This document shows, piece by piece, positions 1,307 through 28,512 of a stretch of 64,000 nucleotides of DNA. Location: the NCBI GenBank assembly GCA_947626815.1, contig CANQTN010000001.1, forward strand, positions 16,483 to 80,482, given 5' to 3'. The notes beneath the pieces are model-generated. The model was not told the origin of the DNA. It saw only the letters and a program-made list of their open reading frames with translations, and did not search any database. Positions within the stretch are counted from its first letter, which is position 1. Every line of letters begins with the position of its first letter. This DNA is from an uncultured Clostridia bacterium (GTDB lineage: Bacteria > Bacillota > Clostridia > TANB77 > CAG-508). The position numbers and the translations under genes were made by a program.

Positions 1307-1781
1307 CTTTTTTTACCTCCTCATTCAAATCATAATTATCCATATTATCAGCAACTGTGTTTTCTTTTTTTACAAATATTTTATAATCTATAAGAAAATG
1401 TAAAACTCCATCATCAATTTCTGGGTGTAATTTCATTGCTCTTAATAAAGTTCCGTCTGCTGCTGTAACATACTCTAATTCATATAGTCCTTCTAACATT
1501 TCATGAAGTATTGTTTCATCCCCATCTAATGTGTATCCAATAATAACAAAATTTAATGTATCTTTATAAAATCTATCTTTTAGTCCTATTTCCCTACTTT
1601 CTTCTCCAGTTAAATACTTAATAAAAAAACAAGGCTTATCAACACCTTGTTCTTCTCCATTTTTATATATAGGGTATTTGCTTTCTCCATTATCGTTTGA
1701 AAATATTTCCGACATTTTTGCTGCCATACCATATATTACAGCTTCAATTACATTCTTAACCATTATTAAAACACTCCTCAA
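1290..1781 (-). CDS. hypothetical phage head-tail/tail-completion protein
   Basis: ORF between head-tail connector genes and tail sheath; no recognisable motif. Confidence 0.4.
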   Translation of the reverse strand: MRSVLIMVKNVIEAVIYGMAAKMSEIFSNDNGESKYPIYKNGEEQGVDKPCFFIKYLTGEESREIGLKDRFYKDTLNFVIIGYTLDGDETILHEMLEGLYELEYVTAADGTLLRAMKLHPEIDDGVLHFLIDYKIFVKKENTVADNMDNYDLNEEVKKDEGEN

Positions 1782-2337
1782 TATATTTTTTCATCTTTCT
1801 TTCTATTATACTTGGAAGTTGTGATTCAAGTTCTTTTTCAGATATAGTAAGCATATATTTGCCTTCTACCCAAGATGCTTTTAATCTCTTACCAAGGACC
1901 GGAACAAATCTTCCCGGTTCTTGTCTATGTCCATGTTCCACATAAGAAGCATATTTTACAGGGTTTTCGACTATAATAATATAATCGTTCCCCATTCTAG
2001 CAATTCTTAGTGAATTTGCATAAGTAATTGCATCAGGTACAGAGCCACTTTCTGCTTGCTGTTCAGTATCAGCGGTCCATCCTCTTTTCAATGTTCCACC
2101 ATCTTTTAATTTATATTTTTTTCCGTCTTTTACTTCAAATGTTCCCTCTCCCGTTGGTGTCCTTGGAATTACCTTTGCCAATAGCCTAGCTGCAAGTTCT
2201 CGTGCGACATCTTGACAAAATCTACTGATATCCGTTTTAGATAATTTTTCAAACTTTTTTTGAAGTTTTTCAAATTCACTAAAATCACACTTTCCCCATT
2301 TTTTCGACATATTATGCCCAACCTTTCCATAATTCAA
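1756..2337 (-). CDS. HK97 gp10-like head-tail protein
   Basis: 193 aa; ...PRTPTGEG...YASYVEHG pattern resembles HK97 gp10 family; position between capsid and tail genes. Confidence 0.45.
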   Translation of the reverse strand: MNYGKVGHNMSKKWGKCDFSEFEKLQKKFEKLSKTDISRFCQDVARELAARLLAKVIPRTPTGEGTFEVKDGKKYKLKDGGTLKRGWTADTEQQAESGSVPDAITYANSLRIARMGNDYIIIVENPVKYASYVEHGHRQEPGRFVPVLGKRLKASWVEGKYMLTISEKELESQLPSIIERKMKKYIEECFNNG

Positions 2338-2677
2338 GTATTATTTCTTGATGAGTGTCATATACGGCAGCTTCTCCACTATTTTTATAAGTTGTGGTTC
2401 TGCCTCTACCCGTTACAACAATTTTGCTACCCGGTTTTATATTTATTTCTGGTGCAATGAATAATTTGATTTTTTGAGATTTTTTTGACTCCGTATTTGT
2501 TTCATTATTAGATTCAATATTCTCAAATGAAACTCTACAGTCCTTTTTTTCTTGTACAGTTACTTCTTGATTATTTTTAGTTATGTGATTTTCCGTTACA
2601 GGTTGGCGTTCTATAATATCACATTTTGCATCGTAGGTACTCTCTATTGCTGCTCTTGCTATTTTATTATAATCCAT
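2312..2677 (-). CDS. hypothetical phage head-tail joining protein
   Basis: 121 aa ORF in head-tail connector block. Confidence 0.35.
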   Translation of the reverse strand: MDYNKIARAAIESTYDAKCDIIERQPVTENHITKNNQEVTVQEKKDCRVSFENIESNNETNTESKKSQKIKLFIAPEINIKPGSKIVVTGRGRTTTYKNSGEAAVYDTHQEIILELWKGWA

Positions 2678-3152
2678 AGCTCCACCTCAATTTCCTATGC
2701 CTATATAAGTCTTTTTTGTACTTTTCAATTAAGGCATCCTCCGAATATTCAATAGTCCCTGTACTGTAAGTAACTCCATTGATTTCTACCTGTGAAGATG
2801 TATCCGCAAATTCTGTTGTTGTATCTCCTACTTGTAATTTTTTTACTTTTACATTTGCATCAGAATTGCTTTCTCCACCTGCGGAATTTTCAAAAAGTTT
2901 ATTGTATCCATTCAAATACCAATAATCTTTTGTCATTCTTAGCCAAGTGGTGTATAGCCCTTCCGGTACTTTAGGTTGATGTATTACATCTAAAATAAGA
3001 ACTAAAGTATCATATAAAGAATATTCAACTTGATTTACTGCATCTTCTTGTTTTTCATCTACTCCTAGTTCCTTTATTAGTCTTGTTTTTAACATATCAA
3101 CATCTATATTAGTTCTATTTTTAATTTTTTCTAAAACTGACATAATGACCAC
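2667..3152 (-). CDS. putative head-tail connector/DNA-packaging protein
   Basis: 161 aa ORF directly downstream of capsid block; order typical of SPP1-like gp15/gp6 position. Confidence 0.35.
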   Translation of the reverse strand: MVIMSVLEKIKNRTNIDVDMLKTRLIKELGVDEKQEDAVNQVEYSLYDTLVLILDVIHQPKVPEGLYTTWLRMTKDYWYLNGYNKLFENSAGGESNSDANVKVKKLQVGDTTTEFADTSSQVEINGVTYSTGTIEYSEDALIEKYKKDLYRHRKLRWSYGL

Positions 3153-3596: not shown

Positions 3597-4616
3597 TTAT
3601 GATAATTTAATCTCAGCTTGGAATAACTCGTCTGCATAAGGACAAGTTGGAACAGCTGATGCAACAACTTTTTCCCAAGTAGCAACAGGATCTTTGCCTT
3701 CATCGTAAATCATGGCTAATATTTTTCCAGTCTCTACAATTTCAGTAGTTGGATCATTTGTTAGTCTTATTTCTTCTGCAGTAGGTCCATATAATGTTTC
3801 TCCTAATGCGTATCCTGGTAACATACAAAATGCGTTCTCTGGTAAATATCTTAATTTTGTGTATGTACCATCAGCATTTTGTTTTCTGTATTTTTCATCA
3901 TAAGTATAAATTTGTGGCAATTTTAATGATGCTAAATAAGTATTTAATTCTCCAACTGTTGCAATTCTTGTAGATTCTTTTCCAAATAAAGCATTTATAA
4001 CATTTGCATTTCTTAAAATCTTAGATAAAACAGTTGTTGATGTTAATACTCTTGCTGGTTTTGTATCCATTTTATTAACCCAAGAAGTAATATCTCCAAT
4101 TGGATCGCTACCTTCTTTGTCCCAATCAACATTAGTAACTTGTTGCCCCTCTGGTACACCATATTTTATAGTTGCCTTTATGCCATTTTCATCTAATGTA
4201 ACAGTACCTTTTGATACTATTTCCATTCTCATGACTTCAATTCTAGCTTTAACACTCATTACTAGATTATCAATATCTCTTGAATATACTCTTCTAACAA
4301 GTTGTTTTAATTCTTTTTCAGTTCTTGGATGCTCTAATTTTATAATTTCTTTTTCTTTTAATTGCATTTTTCTCTTAATCAAGCAAGCCTCAATTGCCAT
4401 TTCTTCAGCTTCTCTACTTCCGATTTCGGCTTCAGTATCAAAAGCATGTACACTTGCTATAACTGGTAGTTTGCTACCTTCTCTTAAAATGTCAAATTCT
4501 AAGTCATCTTCTTTTCTTTCTGGGAATAATTCCTCTCCCAACATTGCAGGATATTGTCTATCTTTTAAATAATCTAATATTTTTTTAGTGCTAAACAATT
4601 CTAATACACTACTCAT
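3597..4616 (-). CDS. phage major capsid protein
   Basis: 339 aa ORF after scaffold; size and position typical of a major capsid protein. Confidence 0.6.
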   Translation of the reverse strand: MSSVLELFSTKKILDYLKDRQYPAMLGEELFPERKEDDLEFDILREGSKLPVIASVHAFDTEAEIGSREAEEMAIEACLIKRKMQLKEKEIIKLEHPRTEKELKQLVRRVYSRDIDNLVMSVKARIEVMRMEIVSKGTVTLDENGIKATIKYGVPEGQQVTNVDWDKEGSDPIGDITSWVNKMDTKPARVLTSTTVLSKILRNANVINALFGKESTRIATVGELNTYLASLKLPQIYTYDEKYRKQNADGTYTKLRYLPENAFCMLPGYALGETLYGPTAEEIRLTNDPTTEIVETGKILAMIYDEGKDPVATWEKVVASAVPTCPYADELFQAEIKLS

Positions 4617-4684
4617 AATAAATTCCTCCTTATAATTTTATTTTTTTATTTAATTTATGCTATTTCATTTGTCTGTATTTATAA

Positions 4685-5113
4685 TTATCCATCTTGTGTT
4701 TTTAATTCAAGTTCACTTAAATTAAGTGTTCTTGTTTCTTTTCCCTCTTGTGTAATTTCAATAGTATTGTCTGTATTATGGACATTAAATACTATTAAAC
4801 CGTCCTTTTCATCAACTGCTACTGGTTTTTTAGTTTTAACACCAGTTCCTTTAAGTTCGCATTTTACTTTTCCCTTACTTGCACCTTTTGCCTCTTCAAA
4901 ATAAAGTGGTAAGAAGTTTCCTTTAGCATCTTTACTAAATTCAGGATAACTTTCAAGGTATTTTGATGTTCCTTTAATTTTATCCCCTTCAAGGCTTAAA
5001 TTTTCAACTAAGTCTGAAACCTTTTTTGTGCCTAGCAATTGAGTTTCACTACTTGGAACTGCCACTTTTGAGGTGGCTGGTTTAGGGTGATGTACTTTGT
5101 GCATCATAATCAT
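4685..5113 (-). CDS. hypothetical phage structural protein
   Basis: 142 aa ORF between scaffold and capsid genes. Confidence 0.35.
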   Translation of the reverse strand: MIMMHKVHHPKPATSKVAVPSSETQLLGTKKVSDLVENLSLEGDKIKGTSKYLESYPEFSKDAKGNFLPLYFEEAKGASKGKVKCELKGTGVKTKKPVAVDEKDGLIVFNVHNTDNTIEITQEGKETRTLNLSELELKTQDG

Positions 5114-6464: not shown

Positions 6465-7691
6465 TTATTTATTCTTTGAATATTTTTCTTTTAGTTTTTT
6501 CCATTCATCCTCATTAGTATATTTTAGTTCTTGAAATTCGTTAAATGTTTTTGGAGCTTCTCTTCCTAAAACATCTCTGTATCTGTTATATTGTTTATAG
6601 TCTGATGATTTATTCTTATTCATTTTAATATCTAATTCAAATGCTTTTTTTGCTTCAGGATCGGAATATACATATTTTTCTAACCACTCATTATATTTAA
6701 TATTGCTTGGTATATAATATATTTTTCCACCAACATTTCTTGCAGCTCTTTCTCCAAATTCATATTCATCTTCGAAATACGGAGCATAGGTAGTCCTACA
6801 TCTTACATGAAATGGTGGAGCATTAACTCCCCTTTTTAAGTCTTTCATATTAAATACTGTACCATCAATTTCTCTACATATTTCAGATGTCCTAGAATCT
6901 AGCGTTGCAATATTTATATATTTTTCTACCCCTAAATTATTAAAGCATTGCTCCCTTGATGTACTTGTAAAAAATGCTGATTCTGTCATTACTAAAGTAG
7001 CTGCTTTATTTTTGCTTACATTAAAATCTTTTGCAATTTTATCTATTAATTTATCTGCATCTCCAATTATTGCTCTCTCTAAATCTTTTTGTAATGTATC
7101 TATTAATGCTTTTTTATTTTTCCATATTCTATCAGAAAAAGTTTGAGCATCTGTAGTCCATGGCTTAGATATAATTTTATTTATTGTTGCTGTATCTAAA
7201 ATCGCAAACTTAAATGCTATATTTGAACCTTTTTGTAATTCGTAGGCAGTTTTATAATATGTATCCTTATATGATTCAATAATAAATTCTCTTGTTGTTT
7301 GTTCTTCGTTATAATATAACTTTTCTAGTTCCTGTTGTATTTGTACTTCTAATGCCTCTAATCTTGATATATGAATTCTCGCACTAGCATTTTCTAGTTC
7401 TTTTTTCCAAATTAGATCTATTCCATTTTCTTGGCCATATTTTATATACTCCTCTACATTCCATTTTAGTTCTTTTAATTCTTGTGTATTTAGCCATTTT
7501 TTTGCCTCTGATAAACTAATTTGATTATTTACTGCAAATCTTGCTAGCCAGCTATTTATTTTGTTTTTTATTTCCATCAATGCTCTTTCGTATTGTTCCT
7601 GGAGCTCTTTTACATATTTTGATTCATTTAATACCTGTGCTTTCTCTAGTTCTTCAAATCTTTTAGCCCAATATTCTCCATTACTAGCCAT
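6465..7691 (-). CDS. phage head morphogenesis protein (SPP1 gp7 family)
   Basis: 408 aa; NAPPFHVRCRTT motif characteristic of gp7/F-like minor capsid proteins; directly after portal. Confidence 0.65.
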   Translation of the reverse strand: MASNGEYWAKRFEELEKAQVLNESKYVKELQEQYERALMEIKNKINSWLARFAVNNQISLSEAKKWLNTQELKELKWNVEEYIKYGQENGIDLIWKKELENASARIHISRLEALEVQIQQELEKLYYNEEQTTREFIIESYKDTYYKTAYELQKGSNIAFKFAILDTATINKIISKPWTTDAQTFSDRIWKNKKALIDTLQKDLERAIIGDADKLIDKIAKDFNVSKNKAATLVMTESAFFTSTSREQCFNNLGVEKYINIATLDSRTSEICREIDGTVFNMKDLKRGVNAPPFHVRCRTTYAPYFEDEYEFGERAARNVGGKIYYIPSNIKYNEWLEKYVYSDPEAKKAFELDIKMNKNKSSDYKQYNRYRDVLGREAPKTFNEFQELKYTNEDEWKKLKEKYSKNK

Positions 7692-9241
7692 TATTCATCA
7701 CCAACTTTTGCACCGTTATTTTGATCGTTAGGTTCCGTATTTAGTTCTTTTATCATTTTATCGTATTCGCTTTCTTTTTTCTTTTCTTCTTCTTCCTGCT
7801 CCGCTTCTAATTGTTCAAGTTCTGAGTCTACATCTTTGACAAAAGGATGATTTGCAAGTATTGTTTTTCTACTAACTTGACCTTCGCTATTTTTACAATC
7901 TGCAATTTTTTCACTTTCATTTGTTATCATAGACTTGTTAAATACAAATTCTACTTCTTTTTCGTGGTAGTCTTTTGACTCGGTCATTGTCAAATATGTA
8001 TTTACAAAATACATAAAATATTCCAAGCTGCTTTGGAATTCTGTTTCTATGTTAGAGCAATCAATATCTAAATCATTGAATAACTCCTCTAATGCTACAC
8101 CACTTTGTGCGGTTTTAAATTTTTCACTTTGAGTATCTACAGCATTTGCTGCTTCGTGTATATCCCTTCTTAGTATTTCAATAAATTCTCTAAATGCTTC
8201 TATATCTATTGTGGTATTTTCTCTTTTATATTCTCCATCTTCTTCTAAGAATATTGTATTTAGTTCGTGTAAGTTTTTATTGAATTTTCTAATATCTTCC
8301 GCATAATTTTTTACAACATTTACACCATTTGGTGTATCTCCTAAAACATCGGCCATAGTTGATGTTAATTCATCATAACAATCTACTAGCGATTTCAAAA
8401 AGTGAATTAAAGGTTTTTCGTCTAGGCCACTTTTCCAATAAACAAACGGAATTTTATCCCAATTTTCTTTTTGCCCATCATATATAAAATGGCTACACAA
8501 AGTCATTCCGTGTCCGTCATCACTTTGGAGGATTGTATCTTTGACTTCCTCTAGTCTTTCTACATCATCAATTAAATGCCCATCTTCATAAACAAGATAC
8601 CTAACTCCTTCTAAATCCCAATATTCTGCTTTCTTTATAGTTTTCTTTTCAGTTCCCTCATAAGAAATTAACTTATAAAGCATAATTATTGCATCAACAA
8701 CTTCATGTTCATCATCTTTCCAAAGAACAACTATTTTCTCTGCATTTACCCTTCTAGCTTTTAGTTTGCCATCTTCATCAATATACACCTGCCACCAAGA
8801 TATACCTTTATTTACTGCTTCGATTAAAGTATATTTTAATCTCTTATGCGTTCTATCATTAAATATTTTTTTCAATGCTTTTTTATAATCTATATCTTCT
8901 TTTTGATCCTTATCTTCCAAGACTTCTTTTACTGTTATATTTTTCTTAAGTAAAAATCCCGCCTTTTGGTTTACAAATTTTCTTGGAAAAGAATGTGCTA
9001 ATTTATAATTTGAAAAGAATTTATTTTCAGTTACTCTTGAATTATCATCAATATAGTATCTTACTTTCTTTGATATTTTTGTATCTTCATTTTCATAATA
9101 TTTTTGCCCTACAAGCATCAATTTTCTTTTATCAGAATCTTCAAATTCCGTTATTTGTGATTCTATAAATTCCTTTAAATTGGTACCTTTTATTGCACCC
9201 TCTTTTAATATAAAATCAATTTTTTCCATTTCAGTAATCAT
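7691..9241 (-). CDS. phage portal protein
   Basis: 516 aa ORF between terminase large subunit and gp7-like gene; ATGA overlap with downstream gene. Confidence 0.6.
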   Translation of the reverse strand: MITEMEKIDFILKEGAIKGTNLKEFIESQITEFEDSDKRKLMLVGQKYYENEDTKISKKVRYYIDDNSRVTENKFFSNYKLAHSFPRKFVNQKAGFLLKKNITVKEVLEDKDQKEDIDYKKALKKIFNDRTHKRLKYTLIEAVNKGISWWQVYIDEDGKLKARRVNAEKIVVLWKDDEHEVVDAIIMLYKLISYEGTEKKTIKKAEYWDLEGVRYLVYEDGHLIDDVERLEEVKDTILQSDDGHGMTLCSHFIYDGQKENWDKIPFVYWKSGLDEKPLIHFLKSLVDCYDELTSTMADVLGDTPNGVNVVKNYAEDIRKFNKNLHELNTIFLEEDGEYKRENTTIDIEAFREFIEILRRDIHEAANAVDTQSEKFKTAQSGVALEELFNDLDIDCSNIETEFQSSLEYFMYFVNTYLTMTESKDYHEKEVEFVFNKSMITNESEKIADCKNSEGQVSRKTILANHPFVKDVDSELEQLEAEQEEEEKKKESEYDKMIKELNTEPNDQNNGAKVGDE

Positions 9242-9254
9242 TTTATTACCTCTC

Positions 9255-10658
9255 CTATCTATTGAAATATGCTCCCTTTCTCTTAACTGGGAATATTGTC
9301 TGTAATAAATATCTTAATGCATCTAATGCGTGGTCATTTTCTTTAACAGGCTTGTCCTCGCCTTTTTCTTGTGCCTTTTCATCCCATATATAAGAATCAA
9401 ATTCTCTTAACAAGTTTGGACATTTTTCTGCAACTATATGGATTCTTTCTTTATCTAGCCAGTTCAAAACTAAATTTATTCCTTCGATAACTGCATTGTC
9501 TGCTTCTTTAACTTGTATATTATTTTGCTTAAATAAATTTATTAAAGATGTAGCCGATGGATCTATTATAGTTCGCTTAATATCAATACCCTCAATAAAT
9601 TTTTTATAATCATCTAAAAACAGTTGATCCGTTTTTGTGACTTTTTCTTCCTGGCCTTTACTATTCTTTTTAGTGCCTTTATTGTAGTACTCATCTAATA
9701 TCCAAACATGTGCTTCATTTTTTATGTACTTTATTCCACAAAGTAAAAATACCTGCGGATTTGTAATACCATAGTCAGATGTAACATAAAAATTATCAAA
9801 ACTTGTAGGAATATCGTTTATTTTTACTGTATGCTTTTTTCTGTCAAAGTTAGGATATATAATTCCTTCAGCTAATACCCACAATCCTAAAATGAATCTT
9901 TGAAAAAACACACCCACAAACATTTGTCTATATCTTTCTTTTACTTCTTCAGATAAACTTAAATTGTCATCCATTGTAAAGTGAAGATATAATATTCCTT
10001 TTTCTTTGGCTCTATCTATCCAATTTACTTTAAACCAGTGATTTGGTCCTTCCGGATTACAGTTAAACCAGTATTTACTTCCCGCAACTGAGCAACGAGC
10101 AATTGCTTGATTTACAAATGACTCAGGCATTAATGCAACTTCATCTAAAAACACACCTGCTGCAGTTATACCTTGTACTAGGTCCTGACTTCTCTCATCC
10201 TTTCCACCAAATATATAAAAATAATTGATAACTTCGCCTTTTGAAATTTCTACTAAGTTATCTGACCTTCTATCCTTAATTTGATATCCCTGGACTCTTA
10301 ACATTAGCTTAAGCCAAAAAAGAACATTCCTTCGAAATGCTCCTACTGTTTTTCCGGCCATAATAAAGTTCTGACCGTTAAATTTGGTCATGGCCCATAA
10401 TACAAATGACAAAGACATAGACAGAGTTTTACCAGCTCTGATACTTCCATCTGCTATTATTCCATTTTTATTTTTTACAGGACTTTTATCATTCCACCAA
10501 GTCAATATTTTTCTTTGCTTTTTGCTAAACTTTTTAAACTTGAATACAGTTCCATTTTTTATTTTTTTTCGTAAGGTTATAGCATTTTGCATAACCTTTT
10601 CCTTAAGATTAGAAATTCTTTCATCGATACTTATTTCTTTTTTATTCTTCATAATCAT
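9255..10658 (-). CDS. terminase large subunit (PBSX-type)
   Basis: 467 aa; Walker A DGSIRAGKT, FLDEV Walker B-like, nuclease domain; classic terL. Confidence 0.85.
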   Translation of the reverse strand: MIMKNKKEISIDERISNLKEKVMQNAITLRKKIKNGTVFKFKKFSKKQRKILTWWNDKSPVKNKNGIIADGSIRAGKTLSMSLSFVLWAMTKFNGQNFIMAGKTVGAFRRNVLFWLKLMLRVQGYQIKDRRSDNLVEISKGEVINYFYIFGGKDERSQDLVQGITAAGVFLDEVALMPESFVNQAIARCSVAGSKYWFNCNPEGPNHWFKVNWIDRAKEKGILYLHFTMDDNLSLSEEVKERYRQMFVGVFFQRFILGLWVLAEGIIYPNFDRKKHTVKINDIPTSFDNFYVTSDYGITNPQVFLLCGIKYIKNEAHVWILDEYYNKGTKKNSKGQEEKVTKTDQLFLDDYKKFIEGIDIKRTIIDPSATSLINLFKQNNIQVKEADNAVIEGINLVLNWLDKERIHIVAEKCPNLLREFDSYIWDEKAQEKGEDKPVKENDHALDALRYLLQTIFPVKRKGAYFNR

Positions 10659-22131: not shown

Positions 22132-22519
22132 ATTTTAAATTTTGTAATACTCTTGGTGTATATTGTCTATTTGCTTGGTTGTTTCTTAATGTTTCAATAT
22201 TTTTAATTGTTATATTTGTTTCTCCAGTAATTCCTTTCATTATGTATTTATTAGTATAAGGCTTTAATGTATTGATAAGTTCTATTTTGTCCTTTATAAT
22301 TCTTCGCTCCTGTAATACCTTTTCCAAATGCGAGTATATTCTACTTCGTTCTCCAATACTTAATTTGCTCAATTCTATTTCGTGAAGTAGATCGTCTCGC
22401 TCGCCCTCTTTGTTATATAAATCCGCCTGTAATTTTTTATCTATATCATCAATATTTTTAAAAAAATAGTTTATATTATTTAATAATTCTAGTGTCTGTT
22501 CCATATTGTCAATCTCCAT
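22091..22519 (-). CDS. hypothetical phage protein
   Basis: 142 aa ORF. Confidence 0.3.
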   Translation of the reverse strand: MEIDNMEQTLELLNNINYFFKNIDDIDKKLQADLYNKEGERDDLLHEIELSKLSIGERSRIYSHLEKVLQERRIIKDKIELINTLKPYTNKYIMKGITGETNITIKNIETLRNNQANRQYTPRVLQNLKCAKKKKEENKNDK

Positions 22520-22790: not shown

Positions 22791-23744
22791 CTATATATCC
22801 CCCATTTCGTATATTGTATCTATATCAAATTGCGTACTTAATTCTGTTTGATCTAATGCTGATAATATACACTTTTTAAAATAAGCCTTTGGTATTTGTA
22901 TTTTTGATTTTGTATTTGCTATTGCAAAGTTCTTCAAAGCATACAATATATTCTGTATATTTATTGTTTCTATTTTTTCCCTCGTTTCCGGATTCATAAA
23001 CATTTCTTTTAATATTTCGGTAATTTCCATACATAGAGTAGGTTTAAGAATATTTACTATTTCCGCCTTAGATATAATCATTGCAAATTGCTTCTTGTCT
23101 GTCTCATCCATCAAATCATCTAAATTTTTATTTGGTTTATGCTCCTGATTAGAAGGATAGATTGATTTTATGTCATTTATTTTAATTTTATTTAATTTAG
23201 TTTGATTTGATTTTATTTGATTTAATTTGCATTTTTTTGCATATAGTTTTTTTATTTTTGCATTGCTTTTGTATGCACTTGCATTACTTTTGCATATACC
23301 TTTTATGCTTTTGCATTTTTTTGCTTTTTTATTATCACTGTTGTTTTTTTCTTTGGTTTTATTCCATCTTGCATTTGCAGCTTGACTTCTTTTTTCTTTT
23401 ATTTCCTCATATTTTTTCAATCTTCTTAAAAGACTTGCTGACCAAAACATCCTCCCATCGCTATTAAATAGCCCGTTTCCACTTTCATCATCTCTATATT
23501 CATTTATGCAGTCATTTAGGTACTTTTCTACATCAATTGTTGTTCCAGTTTGCATTTTTATTGCCCTATATGTATTTTTATGGAGAGGCAATTTAAAGTT
23601 TGACTCATTTCGTAACATTTCTATAATAGCCCAATATAATCCGTAACTTTCGAACCCATAATCGCATCTCATTGCTAGTATTTTTGGATCCGACAAAGCA
23701 TTTGCATCGTGACTAAAATAATAGACATCTTTTTTATTTGCCAT
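22791..23744 (-). CDS. phage replisome organizer / replication initiation protein (DnaD-type) with internal iterons
   Basis: N-terminus VYYFSHDANALSDPKILAMRCDYGFESYGLYWAIIEMLR typical of phage replisome-organizer N-domain; central low-complexity region with TTGCAT repeats. Confidence 0.55.
   Translation of the reverse strand: MANKKDVYYFSHDANALSDPKILAMRCDYGFESYGLYWAIIEMLRNESNFKLPLHKNTYRAIKMQTGTTIDVEKYLNDCINEYRDDESGNGLFNSDGRMFWSASLLRRLKKYEEIKEKRSQAANARWNKTKEKNNSDNKKAKKCKSIKGICKSNASAYKSNAKIKKLYAKKCKLNQIKSNQTKLNKIKINDIKSIYPSNQEHKPNKNLDDLMDETDKKQFAMIISKAEIVNILKPTLCMEITEILKEMFMNPETREKIETINIQNILYALKNFAIANTKSKIQIPKAYFKKCILSALDQTELSTQFDIDTIYEMGDI
23160..23320. repeat. iteron-like repeats (6 x TTGCAT plus TTTAATTT/GATTTGA repeats) inside replisome-organizer gene; putative phage origin
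   Basis: TTGCAT at 23227,23237,23258,23279,23290,23311. Confidence 0.45.
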
Positions 23745-23925: not shown

Positions 23926-24669
23926 TTAAAATGGATATAACTTTAATTCCATATTTAATCCCGGCTGTGCTATTGTAGTTGGTACCCCTGTATTTTTATA
24001 TACTGTAGATTTCATTATGTCTTGGTTTGAATTTGTATCAGATAAATGGCAAAGAATAATATTTTTCGCATAACTTAAATCGTTTGAAAGTAAAAACTTT
24101 ACCACATTTTCTAAACTAAAATGACTTTCCAAGAGTCTACTATGCCTGGTTTTATTTATTACTCCATTTTTCGAATTTTCTTTTGCAATTTCCTTGTTAT
24201 AGTTGCACTCTATTAGTAAATAATTCAATTTATTAAACTTGTACTTTATATAATATGTGTCTGTGGCATAGAGCAGTTTTTCGCCTGTCGGCTTATATTG
24301 TATTAAGAATCCTAGTGGCTCTGCTGCATCGTGTTGCGTATCGAAAGGAAGTATTGTAAAGTTATCTATTGAAAACTGCTCTAGCGCTTTTATAATTTTA
24401 AATCTATGGCCAGTTAAACTTAATTTTTCTAAAGTACCTTTGGAAGCATATACATTTATTCCATATAGAGCAAAGCTCGGCGCATATTTTAAATGGTCCA
24501 AATGCTCATGAGTTACTAAAACACCTTTGACTCCATCAAAATTAAAATTTAACTCTTTTTGAACATCTTTGAAATTGACACCCGCATCTAATATGAGCTT
24601 GTCTTTTTCCCCTGCTTCTATTAAATAACAATTTCCTTTTGAGCTGCTACCTAATACTTTAAGATTCAT
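23926..24669 (-). CDS. metallo-beta-lactamase-fold hydrolase
   Basis: 247 aa; THEHLDH motif; co-located with RecT. Confidence 0.6.
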   Translation of the reverse strand: MNLKVLGSSSKGNCYLIEAGEKDKLILDAGVNFKDVQKELNFNFDGVKGVLVTHEHLDHLKYAPSFALYGINVYASKGTLEKLSLTGHRFKIIKALEQFSIDNFTILPFDTQHDAAEPLGFLIQYKPTGEKLLYATDTYYIKYKFNKLNYLLIECNYNKEIAKENSKNGVINKTRHSRLLESHFSLENVVKFLLSNDLSYAKNIILCHLSDTNSNQDIMKSTVYKNTGVPTTIAQPGLNMELKLYPF

Positions 24670-25577
24670 TAAAACGATGGCTTTCTTTCTTCTGTATTTT
24701 CATCTATATCTATTGTGTTTTCTTCAGCAGTAGTTTCTTCGCTAGCAGCTGCATCTTCTTCATTATTTTCTATATCGATTAATTCTTTATTAGCCTTTTC
24801 TTCTATTTCGTACTCAACTTCCGCTTCTTTCATTTCTTCATCTGATGTTTCGTAGGCCATTTTTATCATATTTAAATTGCTGTCGTCTTTAGTATTTATG
24901 TAGTATTTACATATTTTATTTATAACTGTTCTTTTACACATATCTTCTGTAAACTGTGAATGAGTGCTATCTTTTCCTTCAGGATTTAGTTTAGATTTTT
25001 TCCATGATGTTTTTATTTGATCTATTGTCATTACAATACTTTCCTCAGTATTGTTTTTATATAAAATCGTTGCGTATGCTCCAACTATGTTGGCCTTATT
25101 TATATTTTCAAAACTTCTAGTATGCGAAGTAATTATTGTTTTTCCTTTATTTATTGATGTTTCTACCTTGTCTCCTTCATAAATTACTTCTGCAGTTATA
25201 TCTTTTATTTCTCCAAATTGTTTAGCCACCGCTATGGATCCGAAATACGACCTCATAAGTGTTAATTGATTTCCAAATGGTATAAAGTAGCATTGGTTCT
25301 TCATCGGATTTAGTCCTTGAATAACCATACTTAGTAAAGCATTTGCTATACTTGGTTGCGTACAGGTTTCTAATGCTAGCTTGCCATTTTTATCTTTAAC
25401 TTCTTGTAACTTTAACCATGCACTTTTTAAAGCATTTTCTGGGCTATAATTTTCCGGAAAGTATATTTGCCCATTGCTTTGAAATTGATGTATTTTATTT
25501 AATACATTGTCTGTAATATTCCTTTCTTCCTTTACAACTAATTGTTTTTCTTCTTTTTTTACTAATTCATTACTCAT
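24669..25577 (-). CDS. RecT-family single-strand annealing recombinase
   Basis: 302 aa; LNPMKNQCYFIPFG core; acidic C-terminal tail. Confidence 0.55.
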   Translation of the reverse strand: MSNELVKKEEKQLVVKEERNITDNVLNKIHQFQSNGQIYFPENYSPENALKSAWLKLQEVKDKNGKLALETCTQPSIANALLSMVIQGLNPMKNQCYFIPFGNQLTLMRSYFGSIAVAKQFGEIKDITAEVIYEGDKVETSINKGKTIITSHTRSFENINKANIVGAYATILYKNNTEESIVMTIDQIKTSWKKSKLNPEGKDSTHSQFTEDMCKRTVINKICKYYINTKDDSNLNMIKMAYETSDEEMKEAEVEYEIEEKANKELIDIENNEEDAAASEETTAEENTIDIDENTEERKPSF

Positions 25578-25579
25578 AA

Positions 25580-25792
25580 TTATTCAACCCCCAATTTTTT
25601 TAAAAATTTCATAAAATTCTCGGCCTGTTCGCCTTCTAATTTACCTACTATTACATTTTTTGAGCCTTCCTGTTTGCTTTCCTCAGTTTCATTATTTACT
25701 TCAGTATCAGCATTTTCCAATGCTGCTCCTGCTACTAACCCTGATATAAAAGCAAGCCCTATTTTTTCTAATTCATTTAAATTTTCTAACAT
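25580..25792 (-). CDS. hypothetical phage protein
   Basis: 70 aa ORF. Confidence 0.3.
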   Translation of the reverse strand: MLENLNELEKIGLAFISGLVAGAALENADTEVNNETEESKQEGSKNVIVGKLEGEQAENFMKFLKKLGVE

Positions 25793-25969
25793 TTACTTTT
25801 CCTCCACTTCCGCATTTTTCTTTATATAATTATAGATATCGTAATATAATTCTCTTAAAGGAATATCCGCTAAATAATCAAGATCTATTTTCTTAACCTT
25901 TACATCGTTTTCCTCCTCATAGTTCTTTATTACTTGTTTTACAAATTTTAAATATATTTCCTCTAGCAT

Positions 25970-26245
25970 TTACTTTTCATTCCTTACTATTAACTTTATG
26001 CCGGTTCTACTCTCTCCTTCTACTTCTACATCAGCAAAGGCCGGTACACAAACTAAATTTATTCCTGATGGTGCTACAAATCCTCTTGCTACTGCAACCG
26101 CCTTTACTGCTTGATTTAATGCAGCTGCTCCTATTGTTTGTATTTCAACATAATCCTGTTCTTTTATTAGCGAAGCTATTGCTCCACCTACACTATTCAC
26201 ATTACTTTTACCTGATACTTTTAAATTCATTTTCTTTTCCTCCAT
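25970..26245 (-). CDS. spoVS: stage V sporulation protein S homologue
   Basis: 91 aa; VGGAIASLIKEQDYVEIQTIGAAALNQAVKAVAVARGFVAPSGINLVCVPAF near-identical pattern to SpoVS; GC visibly above phage background. Confidence 0.75.
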   Translation of the reverse strand: MEEKKMNLKVSGKSNVNSVGGAIASLIKEQDYVEIQTIGAAALNQAVKAVAVARGFVAPSGINLVCVPAFADVEVEGESRTGIKLIVRNEK

Positions 26246-26247
26246 TT

Positions 26248-26574
26248 CTAATCTTCTGATACTGATAAATTGTTTTTATTGCCTCCATATCCGAAACATA
26301 ACTTTCCACCATCACATATTAATGCTAATTCATCGAGTGTAACCTCATCGGGACATTTATAAATTCTATATTCTCCGTGTCCATAGCAGGCCTTTCTTGA
26401 AAAAACTATATCATTTTTTTCTAGTTCCTCTTTTGTTGGAGCTCTATGTTTTGCATCACTAACTTTTAATATTTTGTATTTTTCTTTTAGTTCCTCATAT
26501 ATTTGCATATTGATTTTCATTTTTTCATCTTCATTTTCCGTAAAAGCCCATGATGAATATACTTTCTTTTCCAT
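26248..26574 (-). CDS. hypothetical phage protein
   Basis: 108 aa ORF. Confidence 0.3.
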   Translation of the reverse strand: MEKKVYSSWAFTENEDEKMKINMQIYEELKEKYKILKVSDAKHRAPTKEELEKNDIVFSRKACYGHGEYRIYKCPDEVTLDELALICDGGKLCFGYGGNKNNLSVSED

Positions 26575-28512
26575 CTATATCACCTCGATTCTTAGGCTAG
26601 AATCTGTTGTTACTACTAAACTAATAATTTGTGTGTCTATATTATAAAGTTCATTTATTGACTCTCTATTGTCTATAAATATTGGTGCCGATGTATCATA
26701 AAATTTTATTAAAGTATTTATAATGTCTAACCCTGCAAGTATTTTATGAGCATTATTTACATCTGAGTATGGTACTCCATTTACCAAAGTGTCGCAGCAC
26801 TCTACAAGTCCACCATTTATTTGGGTATCGAATAATCTAAACTTCACTATTTTAAACTTGCTATTTATAGCGCTTTCTAATAGTTCAACCTTGGCCTTTG
26901 TAAATTCTTCTATTGAATATTGCTCTCCTTCTAGTTCTTGTATTTGATTTGAAATACTTTCTTCTTCTTCCTGTAGCTCCGCAATACGCTCTTTTGTTTT
27001 TTCCTGTACATCTCTTTCATTCAAGGTTTTATTTAATTTGTTTATTGCCTCAGATATTTCCATTTTTTTATTTTGTAGAGCAGATGTATCCGCAACTTTT
27101 ATTTTTTTAACAACTTCTGATAGATTTTCAATTTGTTTTAATTTATTAGTATATTCAGGTAATGTTGTTATATCGAAGGAAATATCATTTGCTTTTGCAT
27201 TTTCTAATTCTGCTATTTTATTATTAATGTCTGTTAGCTTTACATTTGCTTCTTCAACTTCTTGTTGTATTTGCTCCCTAGCCTTCGTATTTTCTTCTAT
27301 CCTTAAGTTTATTGCCTGTCCTTCTTTATTTATTGCATCTTGCTGACTCTTTTTATGAGCATTTAGATTATCTTCAAATTGCTTTTTAATTTCCTCAATT
27401 TTGTCTGTTTCATACTCCCTTTTACAAGTTGGACATATAAATGACTCTTGATTAAATTCTAATTTTGTGTTACTAACTTCATCCCATTTTTTATAAAGTT
27501 CTTCCTTTCTGCTTTGATCCTGTTGTATTTTCAATAGTCTATCGTTATTTTCATCCTGCATATTTCTTAATTTTGACTCCAGTATGTTTTTTTCATTTCC
27601 TAAATTAATAATATCTAATGAATACTTTTGAGAGTGTTCGGTTTCTTTCTTTAATTTAAATTCTTCTAATTCACTTTGAGCAGCTGCTAATTCTCCCGCA
27701 ATTTTCATATTTTCTTGTGCCTTGGCCTGCACATTTGTCATTTGCTTTTCAATATCCTGTAGCTGCTGATTTAAATCTTCTTTTTGTTTTTCTATTTGCT
27801 CATAATCAATACTATGTTCCGTTATTAGTGTTTTAGTTAGTTCGTCAATTCTTACTGGGATAGTTTCCTTTTTATTATTTAGGTCCTTAATTTTTGCTTG
27901 CACCACTTTTTTATAATCATCAATTGTCCTTCCAGCTAGTTTATCTTTTAGTTTTTTAAATTCTGCTTTTGAATCCAGGATAGTATCGTCAGAAATTGTT
28001 GTCCCTGATATATTTATTAGTAATTCCCTTCTTTCTGTCCATTTTAATTGGTTATTAAAATATAATGGATCCGTTATCAATTTAAATAGGCTTTCCGGAA
28101 TTAAGTTATTGATTCTTTCTTCATAATCCTTTTTCTTTATAGGAACTTCATCTATTGAATATTCTGTTTCGTGTCCAGAAAACTCCTGGTCTGCCTGACC
28201 TCTTTTCTTTACCCATTTTTCTTTTAACACCTTCTTAAATGTCATATCTACACCATCTATGACTAATATTGCCTCTACTTCGTGTTCTAAAAAATGTATA
28301 GGTGTATTATCTTTATTTAGTGTTTTTATATTGAAGTCTTTTCTATCAGTGCTATCTTTGTCAAAGAATAGCCATTTAAATGCGTCAAATATGGTTGTTT
28401 TTCCTGTAGCATTTGCTCCATAAATATTAGTATTTTGACAATTAAAGTTTATTTCCAATTCTTTTATTCCCTTAAAGTTTTTCAATTTTAAATTAGATAT
28501 TTGTATTTTCAT
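26575..28512 (-). CDS. SbcC/Rad50-like AAA ATPase with coiled coil and zinc hook
   Basis: 645 aa; N-terminal YGANATGKTT Walker A, long coiled coil, CPTCKREY hook. Confidence 0.6.
   Translation of the reverse strand: MKIQISNLKLKNFKGIKELEINFNCQNTNIYGANATGKTTIFDAFKWLFFDKDSTDRKDFNIKTLNKDNTPIHFLEHEVEAILVIDGVDMTFKKVLKEKWVKKRGQADQEFSGHETEYSIDEVPIKKKDYEERINNLIPESLFKLITDPLYFNNQLKWTERRELLINISGTTISDDTILDSKAEFKKLKDKLAGRTIDDYKKVVQAKIKDLNNKKETIPVRIDELTKTLITEHSIDYEQIEKQKEDLNQQLQDIEKQMTNVQAKAQENMKIAGELAAAQSELEEFKLKKETEHSQKYSLDIINLGNEKNILESKLRNMQDENNDRLLKIQQDQSRKEELYKKWDEVSNTKLEFNQESFICPTCKREYETDKIEEIKKQFEDNLNAHKKSQQDAINKEGQAINLRIEENTKAREQIQQEVEEANVKLTDINNKIAELENAKANDISFDITTLPEYTNKLKQIENLSEVVKKIKVADTSALQNKKMEISEAINKLNKTLNERDVQEKTKERIAELQEEEESISNQIQELEGEQYSIEEFTKAKVELLESAINSKFKIVKFRLFDTQINGGLVECCDTLVNGVPYSDVNNAHKILAGLDIINTLIKFYDTSAPIFIDNRESINELYNIDTQIISLVVTTDSSLRIEVI

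Follow-up and report, generated by a model that had tools for sequence, protein, structure and literature searches.

Based on profile searches, structure prediction and comparison of gene neighbourhoods we found that a homologue of stage V sporulation protein S (SpoVS), encoded by a clostridial prophage, is a fixed accessory of the ATPase-RecT-metallo-beta-lactamase (MBL) recombination/replication module of a group of phages. The gene lies at positions 25970-26245 on the minus strand of a 64,000-nucleotide stretch, here called the window, from contig CANQTN010000001.1 (positions 16,483 to 80,482; GenBank assembly GCA_947626815.1) of an uncultured Clostridia bacterium (GTDB lineage TANB77; CAG-508). 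An integrated siphovirus-like prophage occupies the window from position 1 to about 33800 and continues past its left end. Judged from the sequence comparisons, the SpoVS of this prophage belongs to an old and widespread phage lineage of the family and is not a recent capture from the host. The explanation that we tentatively favor is that this SpoVS of the phage lineage is expressed jointly with the recombination genes and acts on DNA or RNA transactions of the phage.

The gene was found as an uninterrupted open reading frame (ORF) of 91 codons. Pfam family PF04232 (SpoVS) matched it from position 3 to position 82 of the 83 in the profile, scoring 117.1 bits where the cutoff is 24 (E 2.9e-34), and further matches were obtained to PHROG 35646 ('sporulation protein') and to the crystal sequence of Thermus thermophilus SpoVS (2EH1/2EK0; E 8e-23), while no NCBIfam model matched the ORF. 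The AlphaFold model, made with 35 homologues, had a mean predicted local distance difference test (pLDDT) score of 95.3 and the topology beta-alpha-beta-alpha-beta-beta. In Foldseek this model aligned with B. subtilis SpoVS (9a7h_B) at a template modelling (TM) score of 0.94 and with T. thermophilus SpoVS (2eh1) at 0.92, and with Alba, Sso10b and Rpp20/25 at TM 0.5-0.68 (E 1e-4 to 1e-3). The SpoVS homology of the ORF is far beyond chance. Of 17 family columns that are at least 90% conserved among phage and canonical copies, 16 are kept, the single change being Ala16 to Gly. Residues that discriminate phage from canonical SpoVS were sought and none was convincing; the phage copies are more basic than the canonical ones (median isoelectric point 8.4 vs 6.2). 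The best structural match, PDB 9a7h, is an integrative cross-linking model in which B. subtilis SpoVS forms a complex with YunD, presumably a metallophosphoesterase-type protein, and no paper on this complex was found in our literature search.

The sequence-only reading had described a 91-amino acid protein collinear with SpoVS. The collinearity held, as the profile match runs from end to end, and the length probably did not. The first ATG overlaps a GGAGG motif (26243-26239) that precedes a second ATG, at 26230, by 8 nt. Because of this motif, the usual family length of 86-87 amino acids and the calling of the identical gene as 86 amino acids in public assemblies (metagenome contigs, ENA ERZ27249xxx), the true start is most likely the second ATG. 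The likely coding sequence is then 25970..26230 on the minus strand, in agreement with Pfam, the public gene calls and the AlphaFold/Foldseek results, and 91 amino acids is the maximal ORF, whose 5' extension (26231..26245, minus strand) as read from the sequence holds the Shine-Dalgarno motif.

That the gene sits inside a prophage replication/recombination module, as had been proposed, was confirmed by Pfam and PHROG matches of the neighboring genes. The module consists, in order, of an SbcC-like ATPase, a 108-amino acid ORF, SpoVS, a 58-amino acid ORF, a 70-amino acid ORF, RecT, an MBL-fold hydrolase and a replication initiator. We scanned IMG/VR with the ATPase alone, independently of SpoVS, and 30 loci were returned. 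SpoVS was located between the ATPase and RecT in every informative locus (27/27), and the three loci lacking it all end at or just after the ATPase. Across these loci the identity of the ATPase went down to 58%, and RecT belonged to two families with a mutual identity of 26-28%.

Other phages carry SpoVS in comparable surroundings. Neighborhoods were annotated for cluster representatives, and in 28 of the 56 dereplicated viral loci a recognised recombination or replication gene was present on the same strand within three genes of SpoVS. The arrangements were ATPase/RecT/MBL; YqaJ-DUF1351-SpoVS-RecT; Sak4...SpoVS-DUF669-primase; primase-x-SpoVS-SSB (single-stranded DNA-binding protein); and a Cas4-like exonuclease...RuvC- or RusA-type Holliday-junction resolvase-SpoVS. 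The order PDDEXK...SpoVS...Enc34 SSB is likewise among the contexts of SpoVS in these non-homologous DNA-metabolism modules, and the order Toprim...SpoVS...DNA polymerase A was seen in a further phage of the same metagenomes. SpoVS was found between the large terminase and the portal in 4/56 loci and next to an integrase in 3/56, and the neighbors in the remaining 21/56 were helix-turn-helix (HTH) regulators, sigma factors, replisome organisers or unannotated genes. In the terminase-linked loci L101, L103, L105, L127 and L141 (with L137 nearby) the spoVS gene has 39-47% GC and the portal is of the P22 type, and this placement in a packaging module sets them apart from the other loci.

Database searches gave 777 homologues, of which the best non-identical ones were 74-78% identical. 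Three of them were looked up (P0002, P0005 and P0010) and all were in early regions of phages or prophages of differing types: repressor/Gp157/Sak4...SpoVS-DUF669-primase, integrase-repressor...PDDEXK...SpoVS...Enc34-type SSB...VapE primase, and a 62-kb phage contig. In IMG/VR, a scan guided by the profile showed SpoVS to be encoded by at least 576 viral contigs. The canonical rny-ymdB context was seen in none of the 85 viral loci analysed, whereas RNase Y and/or YmdB were encoded just upstream of SpoVS in 26/52 bacterial genome loci, often with recA near. The window copy, with its ATPase, RecT and MBL neighbors, does not have this context.

In a neighbour-joining tree the window SpoVS fell in a clade of 30 that are all from phages, and column bootstraps gave a phage copy as its nearest neighbor 923 times in 1000, where 59% was expected from the make-up of the sample. 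It was 72-73% identical to the canonical SpoVS of Clostridium frigidicarnis, and 63% identical to that of B. subtilis (9a7h_B, in the Foldseek alignment). Identities of 69% and 66% were obtained with two canonical copies of the same metagenome series (P0081 and P0113), which are rny-ymdB-spoVS loci of AT-rich bacteria in samples that differ from those of the host contigs. As the identity to canonical copies is just 66-73%, there is no sign of recent capture from a host. The ratio of nonsynonymous to synonymous substitution rates (dN/dS) was 0.07 for near-identical copies, where the differences numbered only 5, and 0.16-0.45 for distant copies, and the gene is under purifying selection. Among related phages the divergence of SpoVS keeps pace with that of its neighbors (57-70% vs 58-81% for the ATPase, the MBL hydrolase and the replication protein).

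The distribution of the gene is broad. SpoVS was found in a phage of the Herelleviridae/Spounavirinae, a strictly virulent group, and in two phage contigs with a GC content of 61-64%, although viral loci with SpoVS are mostly low in GC (37/86 below 30%). A scan of genome contigs showed the family also in phyla that are not known to form endospores. 'Stenotrophomonas phage TS-12' (L156, MW302330.1) was considered as a SpoVS phage of a non-spore-former and was set aside: its SpoVS region has 34% GC, and its host assignment is doubtful because the genome of Stenotrophomonas maltophilia has about 66% GC. In addition, we observed two tandem spoVS genes (7596-7895 and 7974-8252) in a metagenome-assembled genome of the Peptococcaceae (L041). 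At one canonical locus of the same metagenome series (L165, GCA_947624655.1) rny and ymdB are each called as two overlapping ORFs (1462-3007 and 4091-4862) beside an intact spoVS, with a HEPN/nucleotidyltransferase pair between rny and ymdB; these frameshifts could be pseudogenes or assembly errors.

The base composition of the gene had been read as closer to host genes than to the phage background and as a hint of host origin. Neither point was upheld. The SpoVS ORF has 36% GC, which is above both backgrounds (phage part 30%; rest of the window 24%; host core genes 25-31%), and the flanking host DNA has a higher AT content than the phage. At third codon positions the GC content of SpoVS (0.16-0.19) matches that of the neighboring phage genes (0.20-0.29), the difference being within sampling error for 87 codons, and canonical chromosomal spoVS genes in AT-rich bacteria of the same metagenome series are equally raised (39% GC, with neighbors at 29-33%). 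The raised GC content reflects a protein rich in Gly, Ala and Val, and it is therefore silent on the origin of the gene.

The position of the gene points to expression as part of an operon. Only 17 nt separate the second-ATG start from the gene upstream (2 nt for the maximal ORF), and 0 nt follow the stop codon. Between positions 22500 and 31200 promoter-like sites were not above chance (43 vs 47.6 expected from shuffled sequence), and on the minus strand from 31200 to 22500 no terminator-like site was found. A sigma-H-like motif was not matched in the 675 nt upstream, for a B. subtilis-type consensus that may not be that of this host. An early leftward promoter, TTGACA-17-TATAAT with 12/12 matches, was located at 31051-31023 on the minus strand, between the gene for an S24-peptidase (LexA/CI-type) repressor of 257 amino acids (31136..31909, plus strand), which is divergent from the early operon, and the first gene of that operon, which encodes a Cro-like HTH protein (30767..30982, minus strand; HTH_19 E 4e-5, below gathering score). 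Four palindromic TGTG-N9-CACA repeats start at 30732, 31000, 31059 and 31083 (region 30732-31098); those at 31000, 31059 and 31083 flank the promoter and the copy at 31059 overlaps its -35 hexamer. The repeats around the divergent promoters are probable operators, and the switch region has the layout of a classical genetic switch. SpoVS lies about 4.8 kb downstream of the early promoter inside the leftward early operon. It is neither in nor beside the lysogeny module, an att end or the lysis cassette, and we saw no autonomous transcription unit and no deviating base composition. The architecture suggests that the operon is probably silent in a stable lysogen and becomes active upon infection or induction.

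Since 1995 SpoVS has been known by its sporulation phenotypes, and we know of no biochemical activity demonstrated for it to date. In B. subtilis, spoVS mutants are arrested at stage V, with changes in sigma-D- and sigma-K-dependent expression, the protein has a predicted Alba fold and predicted nucleic-acid binding, and the family spans phyla without endospores (PMC2732212, PMC11621453). According to the explanation that we favor, SpoVS would be silent in the stable lysogen and, once the cell is infected or the prophage induced, would be expressed together with the recombination genes. The phage protein would be biochemically like cellular SpoVS and would bind nucleic acid, as its Alba-like fold predicts, or a conserved partner. 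Its target would be phage DNA or RNA transactions, for example recombination-dependent replication or early gene expression. An effect on sporulation would then be a side effect or a secondary use of an untimely SpoVS dosage during lytic development, and not lysogenic conversion.

Several points weigh against this explanation. In Clostridium perfringens phage phiCp-D and Aeribacillus phage AP45, whose ATPases are 38-40% identical, the ATPase gene is directly followed by RecT; as these cultured phages have no gene between the two, SpoVS is not obligate for the machinery, and its slot is accessory, yet it is a fixed resident within this phage lineage. The early regions of temperate phages are made largely of replication and recombination genes, which makes the neighborhood weak evidence for functional coupling. 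Nucleic-acid binding is a prediction for cellular SpoVS as well. With an identity of 66-73% to cellular SpoVS and no discriminating residues, a mimic of the host protein would fit equally. The tree is a distance tree of 87 columns with a sample picked by pattern matching, the timing of expression is deduced entirely from the architecture, and a weak internal promoter would be possible in DNA of 30% GC. A wider form of the explanation, which we regard as rather unlikely, is that SpoVS-like Alba-fold proteins are a recurrent and so far unrecognised accessory of phage modules with single-strand annealing proteins (RecT, Sak4), SSB or resolvases, serving as a small DNA/RNA-binding cofactor, and that cellular SpoVS, whose gene is conserved beside recA, rny and ymdB and which also occurs in phyla that do not sporulate, is a general factor of nucleic-acid metabolism with a secondary sporulation phenotype.

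The first alternative, which is possible although we find it doubtful, is that the early operon delivers an excessive or ill-timed dose of near-native SpoVS that derails the initiation of host sporulation (polar septation, spoIIE and pro-sigE expression) and so blocks escape into the spore before lysis, or that steers the cell toward trapping the phage's genome inside the spore. This alternative shares with the favored explanation every step shown here, and the two differ only in the target. The 16 of 17 conserved positions that are kept and the 66-73% identity to canonical clostridial copies are compatible with action in host pathways, and the prevalence of low-GC loci among the viral carriers of SpoVS also agrees with it. 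However, the fixation of SpoVS in the lineage is not what would be expected, since host-manipulation accessory genes are usually patchy among phages, and the family also occurs in high-GC phage contigs and in phyla not known to form endospores. An effect of phage SpoVS on sporulation is plausible by analogy, because in B. thuringiensis SpoVS is dosage-sensitive: plasmid-borne spoVS1 almost abolished spore formation there, and the paralogue SpoVS2 is partly redundant with SpoVS1 and can partly substitute for it (PMC8510167). There is also precedent in phage sigma factors (SigF/SigG-like) that lower spore yield and in phages that carry a truncated spo0A, but in the systematic survey that described them spoVS was not among the 31 genes enriched in phages of spore-formers (PMC10294663). 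Phage phiCp-D carries a gene for a Spo0E-like aspartyl-phosphate phosphatase (L159, 9680-9811) downstream of an early module of the same type, ATPase-RecT-MBL-DnaD. Such phage sporulation regulators (SigF/SigG-like, truncated Spo0A and Spo0E-like) are, like the window SpoVS, homologues of host sporulation proteins in Bacillota phages, often in early regions, but unlike SpoVS they have defined regulatory activities.

The sequence-only reading had proposed lysogenic conversion, in which the resident prophage expresses SpoVS and tunes the timing of host sporulation during lysogeny. We consider this improbable. The gene is intact and prophage-borne, and a second SpoVS copy can affect sporulation (PMC8510167). 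However, with no promoter above chance, no terminator of its own, no intergenic space and a place within an early operon that faces the S24 repressor, away from the lysogeny module, expression on infection or induction is likelier than lysogenic conversion. The base composition shows no anomaly, and the Spounavirinae phage with SpoVS belongs to a group in which lysogenic conversion would be impossible. IMG/VR prophage predictions with SpoVS beside an integrase (L102, L107, L108, L122 and L130-L135) would speak for the proposal, but in these the 91-amino acid SpoVS (about 5989-6264 in L130-L135) is located just outside the prophage integrase, with the integrase encoded on the other strand in L130-L135. 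They are probably the chromosomal spoVS2-type paralogue of the B. cereus group beside an integration site.

That spoVS is a recently captured host gene and a neutral passenger, as its roughly 70% identity to chromosomal SpoVS might suggest, is hardly credible in view of the all-phage clade, the fixation in 27/27 loci, the divergence in step with phage neighbors, a dN/dS well below 1 and the lack of a closer match (66-69%) among canonical copies of the same metagenome series.

Chromosomal SpoVS (B. subtilis; 2EH1/2EK0) and the window copy share the same single domain, the length of 86 amino acids, the fold (TM 0.92-0.94) and a full-length Pfam match, but the chromosomal genes are found in recA/rny-ymdB-spoVS neighborhoods and the window copy in a phage early operon. 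SpoVS2 of B. thuringiensis is likewise an extra copy, about 72% identical to the primary one; it is chromosomal and sigma-H-dependent, whereas the window copy is phage-borne in a repressor-controlled operon. Archaeal Alba chromatin- and RNA-binding proteins have a related fold (Foldseek E ~1e-4, TM ~0.6) at a sequence identity of 15-22%, and a relationship between SpoVS and Alba at the level of HHpred has been described (PMC11621453). SpoVS genes of tailed phages are already present in databases (PHROG 35646; Lysinibacillus phages vB_LfM_LysYB1/2; Bacillus phage vB_BauM_KLEB27-3), and SpoVS has been mentioned as a viral 'auxiliary metabolic gene' in soil and oxygen-minimum-zone viromes (PMC6172770, PMC8940887). 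These records are annotations or mentions only, and the nearest copy in a cultured phage is 62% identical to the window copy. In the literature searched we found no description of the recurrent placement of SpoVS inside recombination/replication modules or of the scale of the phage lineage. As phage spoVS genes have been annotated and reported before, the scale of the lineage and the fixed place in the module are a modest lead that will not surprise specialists.

The genes around SpoVS were annotated as follows, all on the minus strand. The module begins with the SbcC-like AAA_23/SMC_N ATPase of 645 amino acids (26575..28512; Pfam, PHROG). The 108-amino acid ORF directly upstream of SpoVS (26248..26574; PHROG 10455) ends 17 nt before the SpoVS start and has 84% identity to its counterparts in L111 and L120, two relatives from IMG/VR. 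The 58-amino acid ORF (25793..25969, from the ORF list) begins with the base that directly follows the stop codon of SpoVS and had no family match in Pfam or PHROG. It is followed by the 70-amino acid acidic ORF (25580..25792), by RecT, a single-strand annealing protein (24669..25577; Pfam RecT E 7e-40, PHROG 148), by the MBL-fold hydrolase (23926..24669; Pfam, PHROG) and by the replication initiation protein (22791..23744; family match to Lin1244_N / PHROG 2562). Homologues of the acidic ORF adjoin SpoVS in two unrelated types of phage module, ATPase/RecT and Sak4/DUF669, and the matches to the SpoVS neighbors in L092/L095, L064/L065 and L078 had E values from 1e-21 to 1e-6. The family (67-74 amino acids) has the motifs LExIGLAFxSG and KxEGExAxEFxKF, and its members are at 4285-4509 in L064, 5592-5807 in L078 and 6258-6461 in L092. 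This small acidic protein may be a partner of SpoVS or part of a co-mobile cassette.

Elsewhere in the prophage we identified the major capsid (3597-4616), the SPP1-type portal (7691-9241), the large terminase (9255-10658) and, at the right end, a tyrosine integrase (32634..33797, plus strand); the early genes include an HNH endonuclease, a Holliday-junction resolvase and the replication initiator. The portal is at most 41.5% identical to that of any deposited phage, and megablast against INPHARED gave no deposited relative of the prophage. Beyond the prophage the window includes chromosome near the replication origin (gyrA, gyrB, recF, dnaN, dnaA, then rnpA, yidC, jag, mnmE), and no rRNA, tRNA or Rfam element was found within the window. 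Beside the integrase end of the prophage there is a second integrated element (34659-40068, plus strand, about 20-23% GC), which encodes a TraG/VirD4-like coupling protein, a DnaB_2/DnaD-like initiator and an IstB/DnaC-like ATPase. An island on the minus strand (42713-50241, 13.5-22% GC) is located between gyrA (40120-42588) and gyrB (51082-53010). It encodes AAA_15/AAA_21+DUF3696 (OLD/AbiEii-like), ParA-like and TraG-P-loop/HerA-like ATPases together with three ORFs without a Pfam match, and may represent a defence island or the remnant of a mobile element, separating the normally paired gyrB and gyrA.

The near-native SpoVS that is fixed between phage recombination genes, together with its recurrent placement in such modules of unrelated phages, offers a testable lead on the function of SpoVS. 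The gene, encoded on at least 576 IMG/VR contigs, is moreover a widespread one that the systematic survey of sporulation genes in phages does not list. In the case of this prophage, effects on sporulation would have to be sought after induction or infection and not in the resting lysogen.

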